This document shows, piece after piece, positions 15,110-64,000 of a DNA stretch of 64,000 bases (the first letter of the stretch is position 1; each line of letters opens with the position of its first letter). Source of the stretch: Candidatus Brockarchaeota archaeon. Lineage in GTDB: Archaea > Thermoproteota > EX4484-205 > JAAOZP01. The position numbers and the translations under genes are program-made. The stretch covers positions 4,002 to 68,001 of the forward strand of contig JAFNJB010000056.1 of NCBI GenBank assembly GCA_017601245.1. Reading direction: 5' to 3'. The notes beneath the pieces are model-generated. The model was not told where the DNA came from, made no database searches, and saw only the letters and a program-made list of their open reading frames with translations.

Positions 15110-15441
15110 TCTTCTTCCACCATGTATTTTTCAACGTAGTAGCCAACTTCTTTTTTCGGACCGTAGAACCTGAGGCCTTTCTCAATTATCGTATTCTTAA
15201 TTACTTGAGCAACTCTCTCCGAGAGCTCGCCACGTGAAACCAGGAAGTCGATTATTTGAAACGCCTCATCAACATTCTCGCATCTCCTTATGTAGTCGAA
15301 TACGTTTGGAACATATCCTTTAAGAGACTTGGGCTCAATCTTCTCAGAATACCCTTTTAAAGCGATTTCCATTAGTTCTTCTTCACTAAGGTTCCCAGAC
15401 AATTTAAGTAGCCTCAGCCAGGCTTGCCTTAACCTCCTCAA
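15106..15441 (-). CDS. Conserved hypothetical small protein (alternative start ATG 15372 would avoid overlap with S3Ae)
   Basis: 111-aa ORF in coding-dense context. No recognised motif. Confidence 0.35.
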   Translation of the reverse strand: MRRLRQAWLRLLKLSGNLSEEELMEIALKGYSEKIEPKSLKGYVPNVFDYIRRCENVDEAFQIIDFLVSRGELSERVAQVIKNTIIEKGLRFYGPKKEVGYYVEKYMVEED

Positions 15442-16006
15442 GTCTTATTGGAGCCTCGAGCATTTTCATCTTCTTAACGCCAGCAAGCTTTATCCTATGG
15501 AATTTCTTAGCCTCATTATAGAGGTCTGATTCTATTTTTCCGAAAACCAATTCTTGCACGAATTGAGCGTAATTGAGCTTACTGCATTTGTTAAGTATTA
15601 TTTCCATCATCGCCCTCCTCATCTTCTTCTTCTGAGTCTGAGAAGCCTTGTAACGTGTTATTGCAAGCACTGTAATCCGCATCTTGTAACCGTCTTTAGT
15701 AATCGCTTCAAAAACCCTATCTACCCTAGAAGAGCCCTTTCTCAACAGGCTTCTGATGAAATCCCTATCGAGCTCATATCCCCAGAAATCGGTTAAAGCA
15801 GTCTCGCCCCTAACACCTATCACCTTGAACTTTATCTTTACAGTCGTGTGAGAAGGATCGTCAGTAAGCTCGCTTAAAAGCAGGCTGATAGTCCTACCTA
15901 TTAAGTCGCTAGCATTATGAGTAACCAATTGGCAAATGGGCTTACCCCCCAGGTAGTCTGGGGCCGTCACCGTAAGCCACTTTTTAACTCCCTTCTGCTT
16001 TACCAA
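15404..16006 (-). CDS. rps3ae: 30S ribosomal protein S3Ae (S1e). Probable leaderless TTG start at 16006 rather than the track TTG at 16030
   Basis: KKWLTVTAPDYLGG, typical S3Ae. TATA AATATATTTAAA (16029-16041) lies 29 nt upstream of TTG 16006. Confidence 0.8.
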   Translation of the reverse strand: MVKQKGVKKWLTVTAPDYLGGKPICQLVTHNASDLIGRTISLLLSELTDDPSHTTVKIKFKVIGVRGETALTDFWGYELDRDFIRSLLRKGSSRVDRVFEAITKDGYKMRITVLAITRYKASQTQKKKMRRAMMEIILNKCSKLNYAQFVQELVFGKIESDLYNEAKKFHRIKLAGVKKMKMLEAPIRLEEVKASLAEAT

Positions 16007-16008
16007 GC

Positions 16009-17628
16009 TTGGGAGAACATCCGGAGACAATATATTTAAACTATGCTCCTCAGGCTCTACGAGTGTTGGAAGGTAGAAAAGGGCATATTAGGGATATTAG
16101 GCTGAGGGTTTCGGCGGAGCTTATCCTTAGCAGGGAGCTTATCGGTGACGAGGTTGAAAGGGTTGCCGACTACGCTTTAACAAGCTTCCCCAAGATATTC
16201 TCAAAGGGCGCACCCAGCGGAGAGGCTCCTCAAATAGAGGAGTTGACGGTGAAGGGTAATGTGATAAGCATAACCGTAGCCTCTGGAAGGAGAGTAAGGG
16301 CTCATGAAGCCATTAAAAGGGCTAGAAAGGCTATGGGTGAAGAACTTGGTCCAAGAATGGGGCTTGGAGTAAGGAGCATAAACATAAAGTCTTTCGAAGT
16401 CTCGTTTATAGGCGACAATCTTAGGGAGGTTAAACTACCTCTCGTAAAGAAGGTTGATGTATTCAGGGATTGTTTAAAATACTGGTTTGAACTTAGTGAA
16501 GCAGACCTCTACAACCAAGTGCCGGATAGGATAATAACCCTGTTTATTGAGAAACAGGAGGCCCTCCGAGAAGCTAGGGAAGTGCATAAGATAGTTTGGA
16601 GAAGCATTGAGAAGCCCGTGAAATACAACGGGGACCCTGGGCCGGTTATGGAGGAGGAGGGTTGGGTTAAAAGATTCCACCCAGGGATATGGTATTATCT
16701 TCAACCGTATACAAGCCTCTTGAGGATTTTCGAAAACCTGATCGTTGAGAAGGTACTAGAACCCCTAGGCTTCCAAGAAGTCGTCTTACCAAAGTTAATA
16801 CCACTCGAGGTTATGAAGAAAAAAGGCCAGCTTACCGGTATACCGCATGAAATGCTGTATGTCTGTGAGCCGGGTTTGAGAGAACTAGGCTTTTTCGAAG
16901 AATACGTTGATTCGGTCAAGGTTTTCAATAACACACTGCCTGAACTATTAAAGCCCTTGTTGAAAGAGCCTTCTTTCTGCTTACCCTATGCTCAATGCGA
17001 GCCTTTCTACGAGCTTTTCTCCGGAGAGATCGTCAACCTTGATAACCCACCGGTTAAGCTATACGACAGGTCTGGATTCAGCTTCAGGCATGAAGCCGGG
17101 GGGCTTAGGAGCCTTGAAAGGCTTACTGCATTCACCAGGATAGAAATAGTTTACTTGGGTAGGCCTGAAGAAGTCAGCGAGATAAGAGATCGGCTGATAG
17201 ACAATTACGTCAACTTATTGGACAAGATGCTAGATTTGGAAGTGAGGACTGCTGAAGTAACGCCCGTCTGGATGGCCCATGCCGGCGTAGTCAGCGATGT
17301 GGAGAGGAAGGTCCCGGCGACCCTTGACATAGAAGCCTACTTGCCCTTCAGGGGGGATAGGGAGTCTGCGGAATGGCTTGAAATAGCGAACGCATCCGTA
17401 CACTACGACAAGTACGTGGAATGGTATAACATCAAGGAGAGGAAGAACAGAGAGGTTTGGACGGGTTGTTCCGGAAACGGGCTTGAAAGGTGGATATACG
17501 CATTCCTGGCTAGACACGGTTTTAACGTTGAGGACTGGCCTACTGAAATTAAGAGGCTGTGGAAGTCTCCAAGCACGATATTCATGGACACGTGGCCGCC
17601 TCGAGTGTTAAAACAGCCTCCTCGATAA
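16009..17628 (+). CDS. Class II aminoacyl-tRNA synthetase resembling the atypical methanogen-type seryl-tRNA synthetase. Probable start GTG 16063
   Basis: Motif 2 SGFSFRHEAGGLRSLERLTAFTRIEI, motif 3 TGCSGNGLERWIYAFL. Cys about 40 aa before the motif-2 Glu and Cys in motif 3 match the Cys/Glu/Cys zinc-site spacing of mSerRS. About 170-aa N-terminal extra domain. Confidence 0.55.
   Translation: MGEHPETIYLNYAPQALRVLEGRKGHIRDIRLRVSAELILSRELIGDEVERVADYALTSFPKIFSKGAPSGEAPQIEELTVKGNVISITVASGRRVRAHEAIKRARKAMGEELGPRMGLGVRSINIKSFEVSFIGDNLREVKLPLVKKVDVFRDCLKYWFELSEADLYNQVPDRIITLFIEKQEALREAREVHKIVWRSIEKPVKYNGDPGPVMEEEGWVKRFHPGIWYYLQPYTSLLRIFENLIVEKVLEPLGFQEVVLPKLIPLEVMKKKGQLTGIPHEMLYVCEPGLRELGFFEEYVDSVKVFNNTLPELLKPLLKEPSFCLPYAQCEPFYELFSGEIVNLDNPPVKLYDRSGFSFRHEAGGLRSLERLTAFTRIEIVYLGRPEEVSEIRDRLIDNYVNLLDKMLDLEVRTAEVTPVWMAHAGVVSDVERKVPATLDIEAYLPFRGDRESAEWLEIANASVHYDKYVEWYNIKERKNREVWTGCSGNGLERWIYAFLARHGFNVEDWPTEIKRLWKSPSTIFMDTWPPRVLKQPPR
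16029..16041. promoter_or_regulatory. Shared bidirectional TATA element for divergent leaderless rps3ae (TTG 16006) and the aaRS gene (GTG 16063)
   Basis: AATATATTTAAAC is centred about 28-29 nt from each start codon. Confidence 0.45.
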
Positions 17629-17866
17629 GCTTCAAGTTTTGCAAGTATTCGTAGAGAGTGTATGCAAGCGACATTACCCCTCTCCTACATATTACTCTAA
17701 AGACGATCTTGCTATCCTTAATCTCTGAAAACGCTTTAACACCCTTGGCTTCAACCAATTCATCAGGCTTAGTAGACAAGTACACCAGTTTTGCTAAAGA
17801 CGGTTCTCTAAATTCTACTTCAAGTATTGCGAAGCCTACTGAACTGTTCTTCCGCAATTTTTTCAA
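17582..17866 (-). CDS. pcc1: KEOPS complex subunit Pcc1
   Basis: AILEVEFREPSLAKLVYLS...MSLAYTLYEYLQNLKLIEEAV follows the Pcc1 pattern (A.IEMEFPSEDVAKVVYEA...ALRGTVNSYLRWIKAAIDV). Confidence 0.5.
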   Translation of the reverse strand: MKKLRKNSSVGFAILEVEFREPSLAKLVYLSTKPDELVEAKGVKAFSEIKDSKIVFRVICRRGVMSLAYTLYEYLQNLKLIEEAVLTLEAATCP

Positions 17867-19256
17867 CGGCCTCCATGAAGCTTTGAAACCTTCTTTTGGG
17901 TATTACCGCACCGGAGGCGACATCATGGCCGCCACCCATGCCCCCAACTCTCCTCGCCGCTGAAGAAGCCAATAATCCACCGTCAAAACCCCTTTGCACA
18001 AGGCTCTTTGGAACCCTTATAGAAACCTTTAAAACATCATTTTCAGAGGCTGTGACCACGAGTATTTTCTCGAAATCCTTCGGTAGGCTTGCGGAGATTA
18101 TTGATGCTACTGGGCTTAAGACTCGAGGATCCACGATACCATCTCCGTTGTATAGCAATACCCTCTTAGACTCAACCCTGGCTCCGGGAATGCTCAAGAT
18201 ATTGGAGAGAGATTTCGACACCACCGTCCTATACTCCTTGCTTATCTGCTGGGCTTCTTCAAACAACCTGCCCCTTTCACCCATGGCTACGGCTAACCCT
18301 ATGTTTGAAAAGCCCATTCTGGCACAGGAGTTCAACAGCGCTGAAAACTCCCTCCCGTCTCTTAGAACAGTCCCCTTGGGTTCGGGTGTGAAAACGTAGA
18401 TAGTGCCAAACATGTTTTGAACACTCTCCGGAGAGAGGCCGAGGTCAGCCATATATTGCATCAGCCCCGTTAAAAGCTTGGACTTTTCAACTTCTGAGAG
18501 GTCGTTGAAAGTCCTCCAGGTATCGTCCTCCCTAACCTCTATGCCTAAGCTCTTCAGGAAGTTTAGAGCAACATTCTCGTCTCCAGTCAAACCCGGTATG
18601 ATAAAGTTTGAAGAGGATGCGATTGAAACATGCAGGGGGAGGGTCTCCCTGCCGAAGAAGACGAAATCCTCCTCTACTGAAACATAGCCATTCTCCTCCC
18701 CCTCAAGTACTATTGTAGAATTTAGACCTGAAAGAGATCTGTTCGGACCTACATCTTGCATATCTGCCAAGGCACCTACTATCGCCAGCTCATTCATCCT
18801 GCTGAAGTCTTCAACAAGATTCTTGAAAACAAGATATGAAACCCCCGATCCCGAGATATCTGAACCTCCATTTAAACCATGTTCATTAGGGTTTAGCATG
18901 AGAATCCCTCCGCGGTCGCCTTCCGGTTCATGATGATCCAATATGACGACTCTAGAAGGGTCGAGAACACTCTTTATCTCGTCCAAATATCCTGAGCCGA
19001 TGTCTAAGAATATAACGGGCTTTGAAAAACTGGCGATTTTTTCTAACGTTTCTTTATCGATTTGCTTAATCGACATCGCGCAGAACGAAGACCCAGTGTC
19101 CCTCAATGCTATACATGCTATTGCCGCAGCCGCAGTACCATCGGCATCAGCATGGAAAACTATGAGCACATCATCCCAGTCTAATGAGCTAAGCCTACCA
19201 GCCAGCTCTCTTGCTTTTGAAATAAAACCCCTCTGCGCATCCGACTGGTTAATCAT
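17820..19256 (-). CDS. DHH-family phosphoesterase, archaeal RecJ/Cdc45-like (GAN)
   Basis: DHH motif I FHADADGTAAAAI and DHHA1-like C-terminus (GGGH). 478 aa. Confidence 0.75.
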   Translation of the reverse strand: MINQSDAQRGFISKARELAGRLSSLDWDDVLIVFHADADGTAAAAIACIALRDTGSSFCAMSIKQIDKETLEKIASFSKPVIFLDIGSGYLDEIKSVLDPSRVVILDHHEPEGDRGGILMLNPNEHGLNGGSDISGSGVSYLVFKNLVEDFSRMNELAIVGALADMQDVGPNRSLSGLNSTIVLEGEENGYVSVEEDFVFFGRETLPLHVSIASSSNFIIPGLTGDENVALNFLKSLGIEVREDDTWRTFNDLSEVEKSKLLTGLMQYMADLGLSPESVQNMFGTIYVFTPEPKGTVLRDGREFSALLNSCARMGFSNIGLAVAMGERGRLFEEAQQISKEYRTVVSKSLSNILSIPGARVESKRVLLYNGDGIVDPRVLSPVASIISASLPKDFEKILVVTASENDVLKVSIRVPKSLVQRGFDGGLLASSAARRVGGMGGGHDVASGAVIPKRRFQSFMEAVEKIAEEQFSRLRNT

Positions 19257-19693
19257 ACCTTTGCTTCAAGAACCTTGAGATCTGGCAGTGGCACTTTCTT
19301 CCTAGCGTAATATCTGGCAAGCCTCCTTATCTTAGATTCCACGAGCTGCAGGTTATGGACGTTGAAACGGTCAGATTTATGTTTAGATAAATGGGCAACC
19401 ATTCTCTCAGCCTTTGCAATAAGCCTGTCAAGGTCCTCCGTCCTAGAGAATTTCACGCCCCTTTCCAGAAGTATCTTAGATATCTTCTTGCCTGTAATAC
19501 TCTTTACAAGTGGTATTCCATAGGAGTCTCTAAGTATCCGGCCTATCTCAGAGGGCCCGTGTCCTTCTTGGGCTAGCTTGACGACTAGTTCTTCAACCTC
19601 CTCAGGCTTGTAAGGCAACCATGGAGGGGGCCCGCTGTAAGCCGGCCTGTGAGAGCCCGACTTCCCCTTTTTATGACTATGCATCCTTGCCAA
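19253..19693 (-). CDS. rps15: 30S ribosomal protein S15 (S13e)
   Basis: MARMHSHKKGKSGS...KIRRLARYYARK signature. Confidence 0.85.
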   Translation of the reverse strand: MARMHSHKKGKSGSHRPAYSGPPPWLPYKPEEVEELVVKLAQEGHGPSEIGRILRDSYGIPLVKSITGKKISKILLERGVKFSRTEDLDRLIAKAERMVAHLSKHKSDRFNVHNLQLVESKIRRLARYYARKKVPLPDLKVLEAKV

Positions 19694-19829
19694 CTCTAAA
19701 CCCGGTCACAAGATTGAGACCCCCTATTTAAGCCTTGAAAACGCTGGCATTGGAGAACCTAGCTTACACTTTATTAAAAACCCTCATTATGCCGCTTCCA
19801 GAAGGGGATTATTACTCTTCCTCCCATTC

Positions 19830-20396
19830 CTACTTGCCTACATGTTCTAGAAACCATGATGCAAACTCTCTCAGGGCTTTAGCCCTATGAGAGAAAAGAT
19901 TTTTCTCTTCAATACTCATTTCCGCAAAAGTAAGGTTTGAGCCGAGGGGTATGAAGATCGGATCATAACCAAATCCACCCGCTCCTCTTTTCTCAACCGC
20001 TATTTCTCCGTCGATTCTACCCGTGAATATTTTGATTTCTCCATTGGGCTCGCCGTATGCTAATGCAGTCATGAAGTATGCCGACCTGTCTCTTACGTCA
20101 GATAGCAATTTCAAAATACCTTCGCAACCTATTTTCTCATATACGTAAGAAGAGTAGACTCCTGGAAAACCGTTTAAAGCCTTTATGAATAATCCGGAAT
20201 CCTCGATAATAAAACTTTTCTCCAACATTTTCAACGCTTCCTTAGCGCATTTTTCTACAACTTCCTCTAGAGTTTCCGCTTGCGGCTCTACAATATCCAA
20301 GTCGGCCTGTTCAACCATTATGCCGAAGCCCTGGAGCAGACGTTGGGCTTCGAGGAACTTCCCCCTGTTACCGGTTATGAAGAGTATTGTATGCAT
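19830..20396 (-). CDS. Non-canonical purine NTP pyrophosphatase (Ham1/RdgB ITPase)
   Basis: ILFITGNRGKFLEA...FGYDPIF...EKNLFSHRAKAL. Confidence 0.85.
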   Translation of the reverse strand: MHTILFITGNRGKFLEAQRLLQGFGIMVEQADLDIVEPQAETLEEVVEKCAKEALKMLEKSFIIEDSGLFIKALNGFPGVYSSYVYEKIGCEGILKLLSDVRDRSAYFMTALAYGEPNGEIKIFTGRIDGEIAVEKRGAGGFGYDPIFIPLGSNLTFAEMSIEEKNLFSHRAKALREFASWFLEHVGK

Positions 20397-33631: not shown

Positions 33632-35377
33632 CTAAGGGTGGGAGAAAATCAGCTCAACCGCGTCTGTAGATGTTTTCTCCACCATGCAGAAACCGAATCT
33701 TACTAGCTGGATCATCTTCCCTGGGGAGAGCCTTGTCAAGTGGGATTCTCCAAAGCCCTCGACGTAGCTTGCATCAGGCATTAACACGCGTGTTTTAACA
33801 GCATCATTCAGCATGACCCATTGTATTAATTTCACGCCAGCCGATTTTTCAGGAACCTCCACACCTTTGAAGAATGCTGTTAACGATTTTGCTTCAGGAT
33901 CGACTTTTTCAATCTCTACGTTGAATAGCGAGATTAGTCTAATTCTCGAACCTGGTTTAAGGCTTATTACGTCTTCCGCTGGGACGAGTAACTCAACTCT
34001 TCCCTGGGTAGGGTCGATAACGATTGTTCTGAAACCAAGCTCAGGCCTACTCGGGTGACGGTATAGTCTTGCTTCAATCCTTCCAGGGGTATTTTCAACA
34101 ACAAGCCTGAAAGGATCTTTAACGAAGTAGTAGCGCTCCGAATCGTAGTCTACAACCTCCCTATTGTAAGCGTAGAGGTTTTCCCATTTGACCATTGCCT
34201 CGGTTATGTTAAGCCCCATGTCGAGTATTACCCTTCTTATAACCTCCGGCCTGAAGCCTCTCCTCCTTAAGGACCTTAATGTGCCGAGCCTGGGATCGTC
34301 TAAGCTCTTGTAAAGACCCTGCATCCAGCCTTTCATTATCTTAGACTTGCTCAAGACGCTCTTCTCTAAGCCTACTCTCCCTATGTGTATTGAAACTGGT
34401 TGTGGAGCATTCAAATACTGGAAGACATATGACTGGCGGACCTCGTTAGTCATGTGTTCTTTCCCCCTTATTACGTGTGAGACCTGCATTTCATAATCGT
34501 CTATTGCGCAAGACCAGTTGTAGAGAGGCCAGACTCTAAACCCCTTTACCCTAGGGTGCTCGGCCAAGTCTATTCTTAAAGCAGGCCAGTCCCTTACTGC
34601 GGGATTGGGATGCTGCATATCCGTCTTAACTCTTACAACAGCCTCACCTGGATTAAGACCTCCGTTCAACATCTTGTCCCAGAGGCTTAGGCTTACGGAA
34701 GGATCCTGTTCTCTATGTGGACATGGCTTGCCCTCACGTTCGAAAACTCTGAATTCTTCAGGCTTGCAGAGACATACGTATGCAAAGCCTTTCTCCAAAA
34801 AACTTTCAGCATGCTCGTAGTATATGGGGAGTCTGTCAGATTGGTAATGTATCTCATCCGGCTCTATTCCCAGCCATTTCAAATCCTCAACTACCCATTC
34901 GTAAGCATCCTTCAATGGTGGTTTGACAGACGGAGAAGTATCTTCAAACCTCAGTATGAATTTTCCATTCATCTTCTTAGCGTAATAGTCGCAGAGTACA
35001 GCTGGCCTAGCGTTCCCAAGGGTCAAAGGCCCGTCTGGATTTGGCGCGAACCTCAAAACAACCTTAGCAAACCCTTCTGCTCTAGGAAGAGGAGGAAGTT
35101 CTTGTTTAACAACTTTTTCAACTCTTTGAATGCCGCCGAGTTTCTTTAGCAAATCGGTCTGTTCGCTCAGAGACATCTTGTTAACCCTCTCAGTTATCTC
35201 TCGAACTATTGGAATAATTTCTTTAACACGAGTCCTCAAGCCAGGATTTGTGCCGAGTAGTTTTCCAAGAACTGCCTCAGGCTTAGCAACTCCGTTGAAG
35301 GAGACTGCGTTTTCTAAAGCAATCCTCTCTATAAGGCTCTTAACATCATCAAGACTCATGGGAAAGCCTCCTTCCAT
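33632..35377 (-). CDS. gltX: Glutamyl-tRNA synthetase (archaeal type) with HIGH motif variant TLGN
   Basis: LRFAPNPDGPLTLGNARPA...LRFEDT...YVCLC, KMSKS-like VLSKSK, archaeal-type N-terminal helical domain. Confidence 0.8.
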   Translation of the reverse strand: MEGGFPMSLDDVKSLIERIALENAVSFNGVAKPEAVLGKLLGTNPGLRTRVKEIIPIVREITERVNKMSLSEQTDLLKKLGGIQRVEKVVKQELPPLPRAEGFAKVVLRFAPNPDGPLTLGNARPAVLCDYYAKKMNGKFILRFEDTSPSVKPPLKDAYEWVVEDLKWLGIEPDEIHYQSDRLPIYYEHAESFLEKGFAYVCLCKPEEFRVFEREGKPCPHREQDPSVSLSLWDKMLNGGLNPGEAVVRVKTDMQHPNPAVRDWPALRIDLAEHPRVKGFRVWPLYNWSCAIDDYEMQVSHVIRGKEHMTNEVRQSYVFQYLNAPQPVSIHIGRVGLEKSVLSKSKIMKGWMQGLYKSLDDPRLGTLRSLRRRGFRPEVIRRVILDMGLNITEAMVKWENLYAYNREVVDYDSERYYFVKDPFRLVVENTPGRIEARLYRHPSRPELGFRTIVIDPTQGRVELLVPAEDVISLKPGSRIRLISLFNVEIEKVDPEAKSLTAFFKGVEVPEKSAGVKLIQWVMLNDAVKTRVLMPDASYVEGFGESHLTRLSPGKMIQLVRFGFCMVEKTSTDAVELIFSHP

Positions 35378-55774: not shown

Positions 55775-56488
55775 ATGTTAGGCTTCTTCAGGGAGGAGAA
55801 GCAGATGCCTCATAAAAATGCAGTTGCATATGGCACAGCATCGTGTATAATGGGAATCATGATACTTTTTGCAAGCATCTTTTTGTTTTCACAATACATT
55901 TCTAAAACGGCGAATCAGTACTTAGCAATAACAGTAATAATAATAATGCTAACAGCATCTTCTTTAGTGATTCTATCTGGAGCATATTTAAGGCACTTAG
56001 GCAAGACTTGGCCAGTTACAGTCCCTATAAAGACAGCAGGAGGAACTAGTCCGAAAAAGCAGTTTCAAAAAACCCCTTCTTTGCAAAATGTGACATATCA
56101 TGAGACAGTATCTAAAAGCCAAGAGGCTACTAAGATTTGTCCTAAATGTGGGACTGCAAACGATGCAAAATACAAGTTCTGCTTTAGATGCGGAACAATT
56201 TTATTTGAAATTCCTATGGAAACACTGCCAAGTACTGAGATTGAAGTTGAAGAATTTGTTTTCTGTCAAGTCTGTGGTAAAAAGCTAGCAAAGAATTCGA
56301 AATACTGCAGTTCTTGTGGAGCACCACTATCTGGGGCCGAAACGCTTCCTCCACCACCCCCACCACCAGACATAGAGAAAAGATTAGAAGAATTAGAAGA
56401 AAAGATTAGGAGTTTAGAGGAATCGTTAAAGAAAATCACGGAATCGAAGAGTTTTGAAAACAAAAATGAAACAAGCATATTTGAATAG
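55775..56488 (+). CDS. Membrane protein with two zinc-ribbons, poly-Pro linker and C-terminal coiled coil
   Basis: Two TM helices. CPKCG..(14)..CFRCG and CQVCG..(11)..CSSCG. PPPPPPP. EELEEKIRSLEESLKK. Confidence 0.5.
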   Translation: MLGFFREEKQMPHKNAVAYGTASCIMGIMILFASIFLFSQYISKTANQYLAITVIIIMLTASSLVILSGAYLRHLGKTWPVTVPIKTAGGTSPKKQFQKTPSLQNVTYHETVSKSQEATKICPKCGTANDAKYKFCFRCGTILFEIPMETLPSTEIEVEEFVFCQVCGKKLAKNSKYCSSCGAPLSGAETLPPPPPPPDIEKRLEELEEKIRSLEESLKKITESKSFENKNETSIFE

Positions 56489-56556
56489 AAGGATACAAAG
56501 AATACAATCATGAAAAATTGTTAAACCTGCAAGTTGGAAATAGTAGATAAGAAAGC

Positions 56557-57263
56557 TTAACATGGTAAAGAAAAACTCTCGCCTGTTAATCGAAAACAGC
56601 TTCTCAGCTTACCCGTTAATATAGGTAGCGAAAACCACAACCCTATGATGTGAAACCACATTTTAACGTTATACTGCTTATGAATATCATATGCTTTTTT
56701 AAAGAATTCACCCCATGCTTTCATAAAACTATTCATAGAATCAATGCGAGAGTTAATAAGTTGTTTAGGCTCCATCTGTTCCTCCCCAATGGCTAGACCA
56801 GTTCTTCTGATATCTTCTTCCGCTATCAGTCTATCTTCAGGATTATCCTTTGAGAACAGATTTTTAGTAAGCAATATCTCCGGCTCACTTCCTATCCCAT
56901 AAATCTCTAGGACTTCAACAGGCCGGAAAATCTTTAAGCCCAGGTCCTAAGGTCCTATGATCAACCATTATGTTGTCTCGACACTTCCTAATCATAACTT
57001 TTACCCTATTCATTAAGTAGGAGACAATTGGATTCTTCTTAGCCTCCTCAACCTCTTCTTCCCCAAGCGTAAGCAGAATCGATAATTGCAGGAATATACT
57101 TCAATCCCTTACTTTTCATGTACCGAGATCCTATTACCCTCATCCACATCTTCACTTTTTCTACTATATTCCTCGGAGTGTTAGGTGCAGGCTTAATCAC
57201 CATCCAGTATTCAATCATTCTTTCCTGCTCTCCATATTTCTCTCCACTTATAAAAACCTCCAC
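56557..57263 (-). pseudogene. Decayed paralog (two frame fragments) of the 196-aa gene at 59180-59770
   Basis: 57048-57263 matches N-terminus MIEYWMVIKPAP... and 56557-56874 matches C-terminus ...DSMNSFMKAWGEFFKKAYDIHKQYNVKMWFHIIGL. The middle is out of frame. The last 104 nt are identical to the intact copy. Confidence 0.5.
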
Positions 57264-57432
57264 TATGTCTGGTTATTGTCTCATAAGCTCAACCAGGTAG
57301 TTAAGTAATTCCTTGGTTTCGGAAGTCTGGGGAGCCTGGAGGAAGCTGTAGACCAGCATCCAGCCATTTCTTATAAAAAATGAACCATAGCCAGTAACAT
57401 TTTTAAGCAAAAATGAACAATATAACATTATA

Positions 57433-58764
57433 ATGGAGCCACTTTCCAAAAGGTTTGTGGAGGACAGGTTGAAGGTTCAGAATCCCTGGTGGGAATTGAA
57501 AACTATTCCCGCGGAACTCGCAGGCAGGAGGAGAGATGTGGATTTTGAAGAGATGTCTGAGGGAAAGGAGATTAGAATCCTGTTCGGAGTCAGGAGATGT
57601 GGGAAGTCAACCCTGCTTTTTCAAATCATGAGTCACCTGGTTGAGCAGGGTGTAGACCCGTTAAACCTGCTGATGTTAAACTTCGATTTTGAAAGGTTTA
57701 GAAAAATTCCTCTCGATGAGGTTTTCAAAGCGTATTTGGAGTTATCGGGAGCCTCGCCGAGAAACGTCAACCTGTTTCTTGATGAAGTTCATTTCCGGGA
57801 GGATTGGCCACGTTTTACGAGAAGATTGTACGACATGAAAGAGGTTAACAGGATTTTCATCACGGATTCTTCCTCAAAGCTCCTGAAAGGCGAGTATGCA
57901 AGGATTCTAACTGGAAGAACGATTAAACACGAGGTTTTTCCGCTCTCATTCAGAGAGTTCTTGAGTTTCCGCGGGATCTCAGCGGAGGTTAAGCCTCTTT
58001 CCTACAAGACTGAAGCTAAGGTTAAAAACCTGTTGCGAGAATACTTAGAGTTCGGCGGGTTCCCGGAGGTTGTTCTTAAGAATGAAGTCCTCAGGTACAG
58101 GATTCTCCAAGAGTATTTCAGCGACATAATCTACAAAGATGTGACGGAGAGGTTTAACCTTGATGCAAGCATTACGTATGAAGTTGCAAAGTTCCTAATT
58201 ACAAACGTGTCTAAATACGTTACTCTAAGGTCGTTGAGAAAAGGTTTTGGAATAGGCCTGGAGACAGCGTCTAGGATTCTGCAGGCCTTAGAGGAGGTTA
58301 GGCTGATAAATCTCTTAAGACCATTCTCGCTTTCCCTAAAATCTCAAGTTAAGGGGATAAAGAAAGCATACGTTATAGACACCGGACTGTCGAACGCAGC
58401 CGGGTTCAGGTTTAGCGAGAACTTTGGGAAACTGGTTGAAAACACAGTCTTCCTGCACTTGAGGAGAATGCAGTCTAAAAATCCTCTGCTCGAGATTTTC
58501 TACTGGAGGGACTACCAGCAGAACGAGGTTGACTTCGTTGTTAAGAACGGGGTTGAAGTTAAACGATTGATCCAAGTAACTTATGCCTCTGGCAGGGATG
58601 AGATTGAGAAAAGAGAGATAAGAGCTTTAACTAAGGCAAGCGACGAACTAGGATGCAATGAACTCTCAATAATAACCTGGGATTATGAGGATGAAATCAA
58701 AACCAACGATAAAACGATAGAATGTATCCCGTTATGGAAATGGCTGCTTTCCAAGCCTCAGTGA
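57433..58764 (+). CDS. AAA+ ATPase of the DUF4143/COG1373 family
   Basis: Walker A GVRRCGKST, Walker B LFLDEVH, C-terminal DUF4143-like module. Confidence 0.7.
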   Translation: MEPLSKRFVEDRLKVQNPWWELKTIPAELAGRRRDVDFEEMSEGKEIRILFGVRRCGKSTLLFQIMSHLVEQGVDPLNLLMLNFDFERFRKIPLDEVFKAYLELSGASPRNVNLFLDEVHFREDWPRFTRRLYDMKEVNRIFITDSSSKLLKGEYARILTGRTIKHEVFPLSFREFLSFRGISAEVKPLSYKTEAKVKNLLREYLEFGGFPEVVLKNEVLRYRILQEYFSDIIYKDVTERFNLDASITYEVAKFLITNVSKYVTLRSLRKGFGIGLETASRILQALEEVRLINLLRPFSLSLKSQVKGIKKAYVIDTGLSNAAGFRFSENFGKLVENTVFLHLRRMQSKNPLLEIFYWRDYQQNEVDFVVKNGVEVKRLIQVTYASGRDEIEKREIRALTKASDELGCNELSIITWDYEDEIKTNDKTIECIPLWKWLLSKPQ

Positions 58765-59004
58765 CAGCATGAAACAGTCCCTGTCTCTACCACGAGTTTA
58801 TTATACAGTTCTCTTACCGTCTTCTCTATTCTTTTTCCATCATTCTTAACAACGTGTGAAAACTTGTTAATAAGAGCATACGGAAAGGGGAAAAATTGGA
58901 AGGGGTTACATTATTCAGCGTAGAGCACAAACAGTTTTAAAATGATCTAAATGGATACAACAAACCGTAGGAATCGTAGAATTAAGAAAAAGTATAGAAA
59001 TATT

Positions 59005-59130
59005 TATCCAGATGCTTGTCTAACCTTCTTCCTACCAGTCTTCCTGGGAGCAATCAAACCAACCTTAGCACCAGGCGGAGCATTACGGCTAACAGAAGTA
59101 GAACCCCCTACGTGGTAGTGATAATATTCT
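59005..59130 (-). pseudogene. rpl2: Relic of the 3' end of ribosomal protein L2 (about 40 codons)
   Basis: Own translation: EYYHYHVGGSTSVSRNAPPGAKVGLIAPRKTGRKKVRQASG*. Matches the universal uL2 C-terminus (H.HGGG...STVSRNAPPG.KVG.IAARRTGR). Bounded by stop codons. Confidence 0.5.
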
Positions 59131-59179
59131 TACGAGAAAGTATGTGCTCGCATCCAAATCGCATGCTTACTTCACTCAG

Positions 59180-59770
59180 CTATAATCCTATGATGTGAAA
59201 CCACATTTTAACGTTATACTGCTTATGAATATCATATGCTTTTTTAAAGAATTCACCCCATGCTTTCATAAAACTATTCATAGAATCAATATGATGGTCG
59301 ATACGTTGATCAGAAGTCATCTGCTTCTCTTGACAAGGTATTCCGAATCTCCTAATATCCTCTTCAGCTATCATTCTGTCCTCTAGATTATCTTTAGAGA
59401 AGAAAACCTTCGTTAGCAGCATCTTTAATTCATCATCTACTTCTTTAACCTCTAAGACTTCGATTGGCCAGAAAATCTTTAAACCAGGACCATTAGTTTT
59501 TGGATCAACTCTAATATTGTCTGGGCATTTCCTGATAATAACCTTAACTTTATTCATCAAGTAAGAAACATAAGGATCCTTCTTAACTTCCTCGACTTCT
59601 TTCTCTCCATAAGCATAAGCCGAGCGAATAATAGCAGGAACATATTTCAATCTCTTTCTCTCCATAAGCCAAGAAGAACCCGTTGCAGGCATCCATATTT
59701 TCTCTAACTCCTCTTTTATTTTCCCTCGTATTTTAGGCGCAGGCTTAATCACCATCCAGTATTCGGTCAT
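59180..59770 (-). CDS. Hypothetical 196-aa protein, co-transcribed downstream partner of the giant gene
   Basis: 6-nt spacing from giant ORF stop. Has a decayed paralog 2.5 kb away. Confidence 0.5.
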   Translation of the reverse strand: MTEYWMVIKPAPKIRGKIKEELEKIWMPATGSSWLMERKRLKYVPAIIRSAYAYGEKEVEEVKKDPYVSYLMNKVKVIIRKCPDNIRVDPKTNGPGLKIFWPIEVLEVKEVDDELKMLLTKVFFSKDNLEDRMIAEEDIRRFGIPCQEKQMTSDQRIDHHIDSMNSFMKAWGEFFKKAYDIHKQYNVKMWFHIIGL

Positions 59771-59776
59771 TTTACT

Positions 59777-62700
59777 CTATCCTTCATATTTCACGCCACC
59801 TATAAAAACCTCTATAACGTCTGGATATCTCCTCATGAGCTCAACTAAATATTCAAATAGCCTCTCAGCTTCTGGCTCTTGGGGAGCGTGCAGAAAGCTG
59901 TAAATCAGCTTCCAATTATTTTCATCAGCAATTTCAAGATATTTATCAGCTTGGCCTATAAGGTTTCCTGATTCTTCATCTCCGTGTTTACATTCTACTA
60001 TTGCTATCCTTTTGTCTGGTGTTTCCGTTTTAAAATCGAAGTATACATATCTCCTATTACCTAAGTCATATAGACTCTCCTCCTCCAGAATGATATACCC
60101 TAATTTTTCTAAGAGTTCTTTTGTAAACAGCTTTGCAGCAACATGTTGAGACTCGCTTAACACTTTATCTGGAAGAGGCTTGCTTAAGCTTATTACCTTC
60201 CTATGAATCCCCTTGTTATCCTTATATTCAACAACTATTGTATCTTTAAATGCGTACTCGAAAACTTGATTATTTTCACTCAACTTAATCTTAAGCTCCC
60301 CATAGTATTTGATCGGGTTTATTTCCGGTGCTCGTGTTCTTATCGCTAAAGCCAGCTTTGAGGATACTGATTTACCGTCCCTGCCTACATCAATACGAAA
60401 CAGGATTTTTTCACTACTATGCAGAGTTACCTCGAGAATTGGACCATACCCGCTGAGCTCTCTGAAACGGGCTTCGCTTACCTTGAAACCGTTACCGTCG
60501 CTCATACCCTCGACACCGTAGAACTTCAAGTATTCCCCGGAGAGTTCTGCTCTAACACTTCCATCAGAGCTTACTGCGCTAAGCCCGTTCTTCCTTACGA
60601 TTAGTATTCCGAGAACCTCTTCAGCCTCTTTAATCTTGAACTCTGCGTCCGCGCTCTGAGTCCACGCTGAATCTACTCCACCGTCAACCCTACGGTATAC
60701 TATTCCAAGTACCGCGTCCCTATTGCTCAGCTCTTCTCCAAGCCTACGATACTCTTCGCCTATAATTCTCTTCATCATCCCGCTTACGTCAAGGTACTTC
60801 TGGCCACTCCTTATCTCTATGACGTGCTCATCATTGCTTAAGAACACTATTGGTTCTTGAGGGATCCTCCTGTTTAGAGTTATGATTCCACCATACCTGT
60901 CTGAGCCCTCCTCCCTGAGGAATAGGAGCCTTGCCACCTCGCCTCCAGCACCATCTCTCACGGTTTTCAGCTCAACCTCGCCTATCATCGTTCTCCCCCC
61001 ACCGGAGACCAGCATCAGCCTTCCTCCCTCAGTTACTCTGAGCTCGAGCTGCTCCCCGTCTGCATTCGTAACCATGAACCTGATTAGGGCTGAGCCTGCG
61101 TACTCATCCAGTCTCCCCGCGAGCCCCTCAATAATCCTGCCGGTTCTAGTATCAACTAAGTATGCATTGAAGCCGTCTGCCTTCACGAATTTCGACGGGT
61201 ATCTGGCAAGGAAATCATCTATGGTCGCCGGCTTCAAGACTGTTAAGTATGTGCAGCCACTTCTTATCCTGCCGGTTGTTTCCACGGAGGAGAAGCGCAG
61301 GCTCTCCTGCCCATTCACAATCCTCCTTATCTTGTCTACGATAATGCTGCCATCATCAGGATCGTGGACTAAAACAAGGTAAACACCCTCGGGGATATTC
61401 TTAGGAAGCAACAGCCTATCCGAATCGTGGGAGGTTGCAATGAATATTATTGCTCCGCTTTCAAGACTTGCATGCCACGTGTTGAGAAGCCCAGGATCCT
61501 TAACTATAGTATTCAAGAAGGCTTTTGCAACAGTTTCTCCGTAGCTCTCTTTGACTACCAGGTAGGTGTTTAATAGCCTAAGCCTGTTTTCAAAGCTTTC
61601 CCCAACCTTAGCCAGGGCTCTCCCAATGTTTTCAAGCTCTTCCGGGTTTAGCTCAACTGTTCTGGAGAGGAGCCTAGTAGCCTTAGGCAGAGACCACTGG
61701 TCTCCGAGCCCCAGCCAGTTTAGAAGTTCTTCTCCAAACATTCTCGACTTCCGAAATACTCTGCCTATGTCTTCGACAGCCTCGTCTCCGCAACCCGCCC
61801 AAACCGAGACGATTACTCTAACAACCCTACCGCCTTCGACTCTCAGCTCCTCCAGAGAGTATTCTTCAAAGACCAGCCCGATGACGTCCAGTATCTTCCT
61901 CGCGCTCTCCCTTCTCGGAACATTCTCTAGCACTTGCTTCGAAAGCCTTGAGGAAGCGTCAATGGTTTCCTCGAGAATGGAGGGGTCTTCTCCCACCTTC
62001 TCCAGCAGGCTTCCAATGGCTTCGCCGAACCCCCTGCTATACTTGTTTCCCAGAAGGAGGTCTACGATCCTTCCTGCGGAGCCCCTTATCCTCCCCCAGG
62101 TGAGAGTAATAGCATCCCATACGGCTGGTGTTACCCAGTTGTAGACCCCCCTTGCTATTGTTCTCAGTATCTGGCTTGTTGTTAATCTTTGACCTATTCT
62201 CTCAGCCTTCACTCTGTTAACCATTACGAAAAGCGTGACGTAGAGCATACAGGAGACTACTGCGCCTGTGACTCTTCCCCTCGCGTATCCTATCTTATAC
62301 TGCTTCTCAAGCTCGTTCTCAGCTATTGGTTCCTTTAGACCCAGTGCTATTCTTATCTCATCCAGGCTGACGCCGAAGGCGAGGTTTGAGAAGACGTTAA
62401 GCCCTATGTTGCTCATAGTTTCATTTGCTTCTCTCCTCGACGCTACTGCAAGCTCCATGCATTCGGCAGCATGCTCAACCTCGCCTCTGGCCAGGAATTC
62501 TCCAGCTCGTTTTTCAAAGGCCTCAGCGAAGGCGAGCATTTCCTCCCTAGCTTTGTAGGCTTCTTCAACATCTGAAGCCACTTCCATGAGGTTCGACAAT
62601 ACGTCAATACCCAGCATGAGATAGTAAGCATATCTCACGTATGCCTTTGGGATCAGGAAGCTTACTGCAATCATCATACCAGCGGTAATAGCTATCCCCG

Positions 62701-64000
62701 GCAGCTTTGTTAGCAGGCCATCCCAGAAGCCCTTCCAAAACACCGCCGTCTTAAGGGCGAGGGAAACCTTTACTGCCGCAACTACTCTACCATCTTTAAC
62801 GAGTTCGAAAACAGCCTCTCCAACCGCGGGCTCCCGCTGGATTAGTAAAACGGAGCCCGTAGAAGTTTTGTTTAGAGTAATGCTCCCGCTGCTCTCTCTG
62901 GTCTGAGTAAAGAAGAGGAAGTGGTTTGTAGCCGTCTTAAGCCTAAGCGAGTAGCTTACGTTAGTGTTTGCATAATTCCTCAGGGCTATGCCGTGTAGTA
63001 ACTCCCCCCTGTTAATTTTCAGAGGACTGTAGAATAGTTTGATGGATTTGCATTCGCCGATTGTCCTACTCGTTACAGTGTATCCCCAATCCACCTCGCC
63101 CGAGTCGATGAAAATGCTGTTCCCCCTCTTCCACCCGAGCCTAGCCAACTGCTCATACTCTTCGCTTGAAACCCATACCGTCTCATTGCTTACTTTTTCT
63201 CCGACGAACCTTACACTCCAACCCATAGCTCCGCTCTGGTTAAGCTTCCCGTAGAAGGGATGTTGGGAAAGAACCTTCAACTCGTCTTCGCTCAAAACCC
63301 TGCTTAGGATCGTTTTCTCAATGCCCGTGGTCTTATTGAAACACAGCAGAAACGTGTTCTTGAAGTCGTCTACGATTAATTCCACCGTTAAGCTTCCACC
63401 ATTAGTCCACTTTATCCAATGCTCCGAGACATACTCGCCCTCCCTCAAGACAAGCCAGGGTAGAACTATCCATCCGCCACCGTGCCCTATAACCAGCTTA
63501 ACCCGCTCAGTATCCTTCGTAACCTTCAGGTTCTTACGCATATGGAGCCAATAGTAGTCAACCTCCCTCCCGTTGAAATTAATCCTGTAAGCCTTATGCT
63601 CTAGAATCTCCAAGCTTAACACAATGCCGTAGAGGGGCATGTTGAAGAATAACCGTGAGGAAACAGGACTACCCAGGTCCGGGAGGTAAGCATTGATCAC
63701 ATTACCTTTAAAATCGCCATCTACGCTTAACACTGCCTTCGATAAACCACCTGTCTCGCCAGCGTAAGTTACGTTGTAGAGCTTGCGGGCATTTAGCGAA
63801 ATATTATAGTACCTTATGCAGGTCACGTTGTAAAGCTTGACTCTCTTCTTAACACCCTTAACCTCGTAGTAAGCAGAGGGTAGAGGGAAATTACAGACTA
63901 ACGGGATTTCAACAGAAACCTCCCCGTCGTCAAGATTACGTGAAACACGAAGATTGGAGTAGTCGACTAAAACACGATTGTCATTGATTTGAAGCTCCCT
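59777..64000 (-). CDS. Giant membrane protein (longer than 1400 aa, N-terminus beyond window) with sequon-rich extracellular N-domain, TM helices and cytoplasmic C-terminal PD-(D/E)xK nuclease-like domain
   Basis: Frame stays open from 63826 to 64000, so the track GTG start is internal. Hydrophobic helices GIAITAGMMIAVSFLIP, YYLMLGIDVLSNL and VTGAVVSCMLYVTLFVMV. C-terminus YVYFDF..PDKRIAIVECKHG..QADKY. Confidence 0.7.
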   Translation of the reverse strand, partial: RELQINDNRVLVDYSNLRVSRNLDDGEVSVEIPLVCNFPLPSAYYEVKGVKKRVKLYNVTCIRYYNISLNARKLYNVTYAGETGGLSKAVLSVDGDFKGNVINAYLPDLGSPVSSRLFFNMPLYGIVLSLEILEHKAYRINFNGREVDYYWLHMRKNLKVTKDTERVKLVIGHGGGWIVLPWLVLREGEYVSEHWIKWTNGGSLTVELIVDDFKNTFLLCFNKTTGIEKTILSRVLSEDELKVLSQHPFYGKLNQSGAMGWSVRFVGEKVSNETVWVSSEEYEQLARLGWKRGNSIFIDSGEVDWGYTVTSRTIGECKSIKLFYSPLKINRGELLHGIALRNYANTNVSYSLRLKTATNHFLFFTQTRESSGSITLNKTSTGSVLLIQREPAVGEAVFELVKDGRVVAAVKVSLALKTAVFWKGFWDGLLTKLPGIAITAGMMIAVSFLIPKAYVRYAYYLMLGIDVLSNLMEVASDVEEAYKAREEMLAFAEAFEKRAGEFLARGEVEHAAECMELAVASRREANETMSNIGLNVFSNLAFGVSLDEIRIALGLKEPIAENELEKQYKIGYARGRVTGAVVSCMLYVTLFVMVNRVKAERIGQRLTTSQILRTIARGVYNWVTPAVWDAITLTWGRIRGSAGRIVDLLLGNKYSRGFGEAIGSLLEKVGEDPSILEETIDASSRLSKQVLENVPRRESARKILDVIGLVFEEYSLEELRVEGGRVVRVIVSVWAGCGDEAVEDIGRVFRKSRMFGEELLNWLGLGDQWSLPKATRLLSRTVELNPEELENIGRALAKVGESFENRLRLLNTYLVVKESYGETVAKAFLNTIVKDPGLLNTWHASLESGAIIFIATSHDSDRLLLPKNIPEGVYLVLVHDPDDGSIIVDKIRRIVNGQESLRFSSVETTGRIRSGCTYLTVLKPATIDDFLARYPSKFVKADGFNAYLVDTRTGRIIEGLAGRLDEYAGSALIRFMVTNADGEQLELRVTEGGRLMLVSGGGRTMIGEVELKTVRDGAGGEVARLLFLREEGSDRYGGIITLNRRIPQEPIVFLSNDEHVIEIRSGQKYLDVSGMMKRIIGEEYRRLGEELSNRDAVLGIVYRRVDGGVDSAWTQSADAEFKIKEAEEVLGILIVRKNGLSAVSSDGSVRAELSGEYLKFYGVEGMSDGNGFKVSEARFRELSGYGPILEVTLHSSEKILFRIDVGRDGKSVSSKLALAIRTRAPEINPIKYYGELKIKLSENNQVFEYAFKDTIVVEYKDNKGIHRKVISLSKPLPDKVLSESQHVAAKLFTKELLEKLGYIILEEESLYDLGNRRYVYFDFKTETPDKRIAIVECKHGDEESGNLIGQADKYLEIADENNWKLIYSFLHAPQEPEAERLFEYLVELMRRYPDVIEVFIGGVKYEG

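Follow-up and report, generated by a model that had tools for sequence, protein, structure and literature searches.

A probable type-2 (methanogen-type) seryl-tRNA synthetase encoded beside ribosomal protein genes in a Brockarchaeota-related hot-spring archaeon

The 64,000-nt stretch of DNA analyzed here at its full length (the window) contains on its plus strand an uninterrupted open reading frame (ORF) at 16009..17628, which encodes 539 amino acids when counted from the first TTG. An earlier note had read this ORF as the gene of a methanogen-type seryl-tRNA synthetase (SerRS), also called type-2 SerRS or SerRS-A, with a Cys/Glu/Cys site and a distinct N-terminal domain, and comparisons of sequence and fold support that identification. 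The gene very probably encodes a functional type-2 SerRS, and a non-methanogenic, Brockarchaeota-related hot-spring archaeon of the Thermoproteota most likely relies on it as its only SerRS. This reading is carried by membership in the family in both sequence and fold, conservation of the catalytic and presumed metal-binding residues, strong purifying selection, position in a conserved housekeeping locus, and the missing evidence of a convincing conventional SerRS in published MAGs (metagenome-assembled genomes) of relatives. Numbers of named residues and structural elements refer to the 521-amino-acid form of the protein. The features of the gene are as follows.

16063..17628, plus strand: coding sequence of the type-2 (methanogen-type) SerRS, 521 amino acids, GTG start and TAA stop.
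16009..16062, plus strand: 5′ extension of the maximal ORF (from TTG), probably untranslated, overlapping the start of the divergent S3Ae gene and also the promoter.
16030..16041, plus strand: TATA-like box ATATATTTAAAC, 22 nt upstream of the GTG, read from the sequence.
16099..16560, plus strand: N-terminal globular α/β tRNA-binding domain, residues 13-166 (PF18490 and AlphaFold2 [AF2] model).
16885..16959, plus strand: helix-turn-helix (HTH) insertion, residues ~275-299, lying between motifs 1 and 2 and idiosyncratic to type-2 SerRS.
16996..16998, plus strand: Cys312, first presumed zinc ligand, aligned to Cys306 of Methanosarcina barkeri (2cim alignment).
17071..17148, plus strand: class II motif 2, SGFSFRHEAGGLRSLERLTAFTRIEI, with the ATP-binding Arg342 and Glu344, ending at Glu361.
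17143-17145, plus strand: Glu361, second presumed zinc ligand, aligned to M. barkeri Glu355.
17266..17397, plus strand: region that pairs in the alignment with the loop and pocket residues Trp396, Asn435, and Ser437 of M. barkeri (here Val402-Trp403, Asn443, and Ser445).
17461..17508, plus strand: class II motif 3, TGCSGNGLERWIYAFL, with Cys469 and the motif-3 Arg476 (2cim alignment and conservation in the family).
17467-17469, plus strand: Cys469, third presumed zinc ligand, aligned to M. barkeri Cys461.

Translation almost certainly starts at the GTG at 16063 rather than at 16009, so that the protein has 521 amino acids. Gene callers predicted an identical (100%) 521-amino-acid protein (P0001) on four independent contigs, and P0002 and P0010, two orthologs, have their first codon at the corresponding place. 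These starts, and the TATA-like box between the two codons, led us to discard the TTG at 16009. The ORF of the earlier note is real, but 16009 is only the upstream end of the maximal frame. The divergent S3Ae and SerRS genes are 32 nt apart. The TATA-like box is assigned a promoter role from the general architecture of archaeal promoters, and its position would suggest a leaderless or short-leader SerRS mRNA. When translated, this AT-rich element mimics a "conserved" peptide, T[IT]YLNYA, in the upstream extensions of P0003 and P0007. At the 3′ end, a 94-amino-acid ORF (17582-17866, minus strand) overlaps the SerRS gene by 47 nt and also overlaps the start of the DHH gene; it was called as a gene on identical Logan contigs, had no Pfam match, and may be spurious.

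Searches against Pfam returned tRNA_bind_4 (PF18490) over residues 13-166 with E = 1.3e-28 and, at 34.4 bits (cutoff, 29.3), the class II core (PF00587). In NCBIfam, the model for serine-tRNA ligase, type 2 (NF002120) matched residues 30-530 over model positions 3-518 of 518 (E = 2.3e-144), and TIGR00415 (serS_MJ) matched with E = 4.9e-101. Among PDB sequences, the SerRSs of M. barkeri (2cim; 5e-104) and Methanopyrus kandleri (3w3s; 2e-76) were found, and the next match after these two was an aa:carrier-protein ligase (3mey; 1.5e-9). The AF2 model, built from a 27-sequence alignment, had a predicted local distance difference test score (pLDDT) of 85.7 and a predicted template modeling score (pTM) of 0.77. 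When it was compared with the PDB using Foldseek, the nine best matches were chains of the M. barkeri and M. kandleri SerRSs (6e-49 to 2e-44; template modeling [TM] score ≤0.78), and conventional SerRS folds ranked below them at about 1e-14 to 1e-13. The earlier note had taken best hits to the families of prolyl-, threonyl-, or glycyl-tRNA synthetase (ProRS, ThrRS, or GlyRS) as counterevidence; the best hidden Markov model, PDB, and fold matches are all methanogen-type SerRS. An identity as ProRS, ThrRS, or GlyRS was rejected, with ProRS at 18.9 bits and ThrRS at 18.5 bits (1e-3 to 1e-4) against 481.8 bits for type-2 SerRS. A conventional SerRS was likewise rejected: TIGR00414 gave 23.9 bits (1.8e-5, core only) against a cutoff of 301.65, and the Pfam search found no match to PF02403, the N-terminal domain of conventional SerRS, in the protein. 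An aa:carrier-protein ligase was rejected with 70.2 bits to NF005479 (1.4e-19) against a cutoff of 357, over residues 324-516 only. The protein is a divergent new member of the known type-2 SerRS family and not a separate kind.

Motif 2, motif 3, and the segment QCEPFYE were all present exactly as first reported. From the Cys in AQCEPF to the Glu of TRIEIV the distance is 49 residues, and from that Glu to the motif-3 Cys it is 108, so that the distances of about 40 and about 110 in the earlier note were approximately right. The zinc ligands of M. barkeri SerRS are reportedly C306, E355, and C461, with a spacing of 49 and 106. C312, E361, and C469 fall on positions 326, 375, and 481 of the 2cim chain (chain numbering is native + 20), and the three presumed ligands, whose equivalence the note had proposed to check, align residue for residue to the M. 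barkeri enzyme. In methanogen-type SerRS, Cys and Glu side chains coordinate the zinc together with a water molecule that serine displaces (PMC7373986, a 2020 review). C312, E361, C469, R342, E344, and R476 were invariant in 27 of 27 homologs and in 49 of 49 sequences covering every clade of the family. Trp396, Asn435, and Ser437 of M. barkeri SerRS are reportedly functional loop and pocket residues; Asn435 and Ser437 have their equivalents here in Asn443 and Ser445.

The N-terminal domain, first described as 170 amino acids long, is present, and its extent is refined to residues 13-166 by PF18490. In the AF2 model it contains strands at 8-22, 57-64, 67-74, 103-118, 128-134, and 137-142 and helices at 30-46, 80-99, 146-150, and 153-166. 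The corresponding domain of M. kandleri SerRS consists of six strands and four helices, unlike the coiled coil of ordinary SerRS, and five of its side chains (Arg40, Arg69, Arg72, Lys82, and Arg83) touch the variable arm of the tRNA (PMC3711452). At four of these five positions, the residue is conserved or conservatively replaced (Lys48, Arg76, Arg79, and Lys89). The HTH insertion aligns to M. barkeri SerRS without gaps, and its helices (275-288 and 293-299) were modeled at moderate pLDDT of 65-80; a 36-residue HTH module is listed as an insertion of SerRS-A (PMC10810186). The protein ends in a C-terminal tail of ~15 amino acids terminating in DTWPPRVLKQPPR, and the Methanosarcinales proteins are without such a tail.

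If it works as its homologs from M. barkeri and M. kandleri do, the protein would form a homodimer through its class II catalytic domains. Zinc binding, serine specificity, and charging of tRNA-Ser would follow from this homology. Cys312, Glu361, Cys469, and a water molecule would hold an active-site Zn2+, and the amino group of serine would displace the water and bind the metal, by which serine would be selected and threonine disfavored. Motif 2 (Arg342 and Glu344) and motif 3 (Arg476) are predicted to bind ATP for the formation of seryl-adenylate. The anticodon would remain unread, and serine would be moved to A76 of the tRNA.

The SerRS gene is under strong purifying selection, with ratios of nonsynonymous to synonymous substitution rates (dN/dS) of 0.05-0.07 against three orthologs. 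It was kept at the same locus in 15 of 15 species-level relatives (74-87% identity), in which the identities of the neighboring genes track that of SerRS. These dN/dS values and the retention in 15 species point more to an essential function carried by a single copy than to a duplicate that could be lost.

The nearest proteins (75-87% identity) belong to metagenome-assembled genomes (MAGs) labeled Thermoproteota or Nitrososphaerota. When one genome of each GTDB species was scanned, the Chinese hot-spring bins JZ-1, JZ-2, and DRTY-6 had the closest loci (79-87%), and the Candidatus Brockarchaeota MAGs DRTY-6.bins.80 and GD2_1 followed, with orthologs at 74-75%. In the literature, Brockarchaeota correspond to the GTDB order EX4484-205 and are published as non-methanogenic, without methyl-coenzyme M reductase (MCR) and the tetrahydromethanopterin (H4MPT) branch. 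The host thus does not appear to be a methanogen, its nearest relatives being Brockarchaeota and Thermoproteota MAGs from hot springs.

Whether this is the only SerRS of the lineage bears on the best surviving alternative, in which the gene would be a redundant second SerRS beside a conventional enzyme encoded elsewhere in the genome. Such an arrangement is found in M. barkeri, which has both types (PMC9976931), and the window covers only 64 kb of the genome. A published KOfam table for 15 Brockarchaeota MAGs, 13 of them from hot springs (PMC8065059, supplementary file 9), speaks to this point. In that table, AlaRS was assigned in 15 MAGs, GlyRS in 14, ProRS in 12, MetRS in 11, and CysRS in 10, whereas none of the 13 hot-spring MAGs had a strong match to the SerRS model K01875 (PMC8065059). 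K01875 was borderline in two hot-spring MAGs (74.7 bits against a threshold of 71.33) and strong only in the Guaymas MAG B27_G9 (438.8 and 158 bits), where the 438.8-bit match may be a conventional enzyme (PMC8065059). DRTY-6.80 carries the type-2 gene (locus L006) and has no K01875 row in the table. GD2_1 also carries it (L013), and GD2_147_42, a bin of GD2_1 scaffolds that we assume to be the same MAG, is without a K01875 row. The Brockarchaeota paper itself makes no mention of seryl- or aminoacyl-tRNA synthetases (PMC8065059). With Escherichia coli SerS as the tblastn query, the window and 83 related loci, which represent a small part of each genome, gave matches solely to the type-2 genes in their catalytic core (2e-4), and a conventional serS was found in none of them. 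For the conventional serS that the earlier note had asked about, the answer is therefore negative in the window and these loci, and no convincing one appears in the table of hot-spring MAGs, but this genome as a whole is not covered. Together with the retention in all 15 close species and the low dN/dS, the missing K01875 matches make a redundant copy improbable. Judging from the annotation of the related MAGs, the type-2 enzyme is most likely the sole SerRS of this lineage. With regard to the phylum, the scores of B27_G9 compared with those of the hot-spring MAGs raise the possibility that Brockarchaeota may contain both SerRS types, as Methanosarcina does.

The genes next to SerRS in the window are as follows.

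15404..16030, minus strand: ribosomal protein S3Ae gene (PF01015), divergent neighbor.
17820-19256, minus strand: DHH/RecJ-like phosphoesterase gene (PF01368, PF21763, and PF02272), convergent neighbor.
19253-19693, minus strand: ribosomal protein S15 gene (PF00312), beyond the DHH gene in the same cluster.

In archaea generally, the genes for S15, RecJ-like proteins, and S3Ae are reportedly neighbors. Here the cluster of Ham1, S15, DHH (RecJ-like), SerRS, and S3Ae spans 15404-20396 of the window. The same genes lie in this order on one strand in Methanosarcinaceae (e.g., L022) and in Bathyarchaeia, including Hecatellales (L042, L052, and L075). Hydrothermarchaeum (L059) has the same order, with no S3Ae match found at that locus. 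The window clade and its sister clade (L001-L019) again show this order, with SerRS alone inverted. S15 is 57-61% identical to its counterparts in Bathyarchaeia and 42-47% to those in Methanosarcinaceae, and the DHH/RecJ-like protein is 37-39% and 26-29% identical, respectively. SerRS, on the other hand, is nearly equidistant, with 38-41% identity to Bathyarchaeia and 36-39% to Methanosarcinaceae. This pattern fits an old resident gene or an in-situ replacement at a conserved site and speaks against a recent isolated acquisition.

The type-2 SerRS family was encoded in 489 species-level genomes of the scan. Among the hosts are Bathyarchaeia (Hecatellales and others), two Asgard lineages, one of them Njordarchaeota, Hydrothermarchaeota, and MAGs labeled Thermoprotei and Desulfurococcales, and a protein search added Hadesarchaea and Thermoplasmata. 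The enzyme has been described as "unique to methanogenic archaea" (Itoh et al. 2013; PMC3711452), and a 2024 review still calls it "confined only to methanogenic archaea". Fournier, Andam and Gogarten (2015) assigned the common type to Korarchaeota, Thaumarchaeota, and Crenarchaeota and proposed that the rare SerRS was transferred from a lineage that diverged before LUCA (the last universal common ancestor) (PMC4427996). Our literature search found no report of type-2 SerRS outside methanogens, which does not prove that none exists. The confinement to methanogens assumed in the earlier note does not hold, since many of the 489 genomes are non-methanogens. The note had expected the gene to be phylogenetically notable; a non-methanogenic TACK host is supported, but this is one occurrence of many and not a unique one.

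We constructed a neighbor-joining tree from 495 alignment columns, with 200 bootstraps counted as unrooted splits. The window clade was supported in 200 of 200 replicates, its grouping with the sister clade (51-56% identity) in 200, and the further inclusion of three metagenome proteins in 197. The Methanosarcinales type, the type of Asgard and Thermoprotei, and the Group I methanogen type were each recovered in 200/200, and that of Bathyarchaeia and Hadesarchaea in 135/200. The window clade joined the Hydrothermarchaeota type in only 111/200, and the neighbor-joining tree leaves the deep order between clades unsettled. Because TACK lineages occur in three clades and the gene tree is incongruent with taxonomy, some transfer or sorting must have occurred.

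This incongruence, with TACK lineages in three separate clades, and the published model, which accounts for the distribution of the rare SerRS by horizontal transfer (PMC4427996), would be in line with a recent acquisition of the gene from a methanogen. However, the window clade is long-branched, has full bootstrap support, and is only 36-41% identical to all other clades, methanogens included. The gene is also common to at least 15 species and to the sister clade with the same local gene order. Given the depth of the clade and its sharing by at least 15 species and the sister clade, any transfer must be ancient, and we regard a recent acquisition from a methanogen as very unlikely.

A broader view, which we put forward tentatively and with more doubt than confidence, is that methanogen-type SerRS may be an ancient and widespread archaeal enzyme with a fixed home in the Ham1-S15-RecJ-like-SerRS-S3Ae cluster. 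If so, the restriction to methanogens would be a sampling artifact, and the scenario of a transfer from an extinct pre-LUCA lineage specifically to methanogens would need revision. Early Archaea would then either have possessed the enzyme, with later sorting against the common type, or it would have been repeatedly replaced in situ at a conserved locus.

The least probable alternative, which we consider hardly credible, is a type-2 SerRS paralog that has acquired another function and acts on another amino acid or a non-tRNA acceptor, like the aa:[carrier protein] ligases; scores below both equivalog cutoffs, the differing Trp396 position, and the recognizable relationship of those ligases to the core (1.4e-19 and 1.5e-9) are compatible with it, but the protein has a full tRNA-binding domain with basic contact residues, unlike the core-only 346-residue ligases, keeps all the zinc and ATP residues and the Asn435 and Ser437 equivalents, and is flanked by ribosomal proteins with no carrier-protein or biosynthetic genes adjoining, and the related genomes offer no convincing alternative SerRS. 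For the same reasons of a conserved active site and tRNA domain, dN/dS of 0.05-0.07, and no convincing substitute SerRS, the fallback of the earlier note, a new paralog with a different substrate, is not supported.

Several points weigh against a functional type-2 SerRS that is the only one of its lineage. The NF002120 score of 481.8 is below the curated equivalog cutoff of 611, and the TIGR00415 score of 338.7 is below that of 489.55. NCBI therefore leaves the clade without a SerRS name; its members (P0002-P0004, P0011, and P0015 included) are called only "aminoacyl--tRNA ligase-related protein". These cutoffs are annotation thresholds trained on methanogen sequences and not structural criteria, and the shortfall reflects the ~35-40% identity to the methanogen sequences behind the models, the defining structural features being all present. 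At the residue level, the fifth tRNA contact of M. kandleri SerRS, Arg83, corresponds to Ala90 here, and the position of M. barkeri Trp396 is Val402, with the Trp displaced by one residue (Trp403). Zinc binding and serylation are predicted from the homologous enzymes of M. barkeri and M. kandleri. The absence of a conventional SerRS is taken from a published table of related, incomplete MAGs with orthologs at 74-75% identity and not from this genome, and the K01875 scores in it may depend on how that model responds to type-2 enzymes. Finally, with ARAGORN, neither the window nor the 22 related loci searched yielded a tRNA gene, and hence no tRNA-Ser in which to look for the identity set used by the methanogen enzyme, which comprises G73, G1-C72, G30-C40, and a long variable arm (PMC9976931).

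By annotation, the hot-spring Brockarchaeota genomes seem to lack an essential SerRS, and recognition of the type-2 protein fills this gap. The annotation gap is systematic: NCBI leaves the clade unlabeled as SerRS, and KOfam K01875 gives no match or a borderline one for SerRS in the MAGs from hot springs. A non-methanogenic TACK host and hundreds of non-methanogen genomes with the gene at a conserved locus change the data on which the model of Fournier et al. (2015) was built, and the ribosomal-protein locus offers a concrete handle for re-testing that published evolutionary scenario. The label "methanogen-type" is thus outdated, and the interest lies in the distribution more than in the single gene. 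As a divergent and probably thermostable SerRS that is predicted to leave the anticodon unread, the enzyme is also a possible source of orthogonal synthetase/tRNA pairs.

The other genes of the window are archaeal housekeeping genes, including those for the shikimate pathway, archaeal initiation factor 5B (aIF5B), GluRS, SecY, and aIF2-gamma. A second aminoacyl-tRNA synthetase gene at 33632-35377 (minus strand) encodes a class I enzyme of the Glu/Gln type (PF00749 and PF03950), presumably GluRS. At 59777-63826 (minus strand), an ORF of ~1,348 amino acids was unmatched in Pfam, NCBIfam, and the PDB sequences and had no hydrophobic segments, and its C-terminus (…RIAIVECKHGDEE…) resembles a PD-(D/E)xK nuclease motif. 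The GC content is ~0.40 at 56000-60000, compared with ~0.47 elsewhere in the window. This low-GC segment, which adjoins the large ORF, contains a gene for an AAA_14/DUF4143 ATPase (57433-58764) and may be a mobile or defense island.

Among known systems, M. barkeri SerRS (2CIM, 2CJ9, 2CJA, and 2CJB), the structure that founded the zinc-dependent methanogen type, is the closest in sequence and the top fold match (6e-49), aligning over residues 62-517 of the 539-residue ORF (5e-104). The two proteins have in common the Cys/Glu/Cys triad (49/108 here, reportedly 49/106 there), motifs 2 and 3, the HTH insertion, and the N-terminal α/β domain. They differ in that their identity is only ~35-37%, the Trp is shifted, the C-terminal tail is extra, and the host is not a methanogen. 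M. kandleri SerRS (3W3S, a complex with tRNA-Sec) matches over its full length (2e-76) and gives the best global superposition, with a TM score of 0.78, but is ~32% identical, has Arg83 in place of Ala90, and belongs to a separate subclade, the Group I methanogen type. The conventional SerRSs, such as E. coli SerS and that of Pyrococcus horikoshii (2ZR3), share the class II core and the reaction and show weak similarity in the catalytic domain only; they have a coiled-coil N-terminal arm and no active-site zinc (PMC3711452; 2024 review). The aa:[carrier protein] ligases (Bll0957 family; 3MEY and 4H2S) have a core related to type-2 SerRS (NF005479, 1.4e-19; 3mey, 1.5e-9) and load a carrier protein instead of tRNA. 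They are 346-residue chains that align only to residues 319-516 and so have no counterpart of the N-terminal domain, whereas the protein described here has the full tRNA-binding N-terminal domain.

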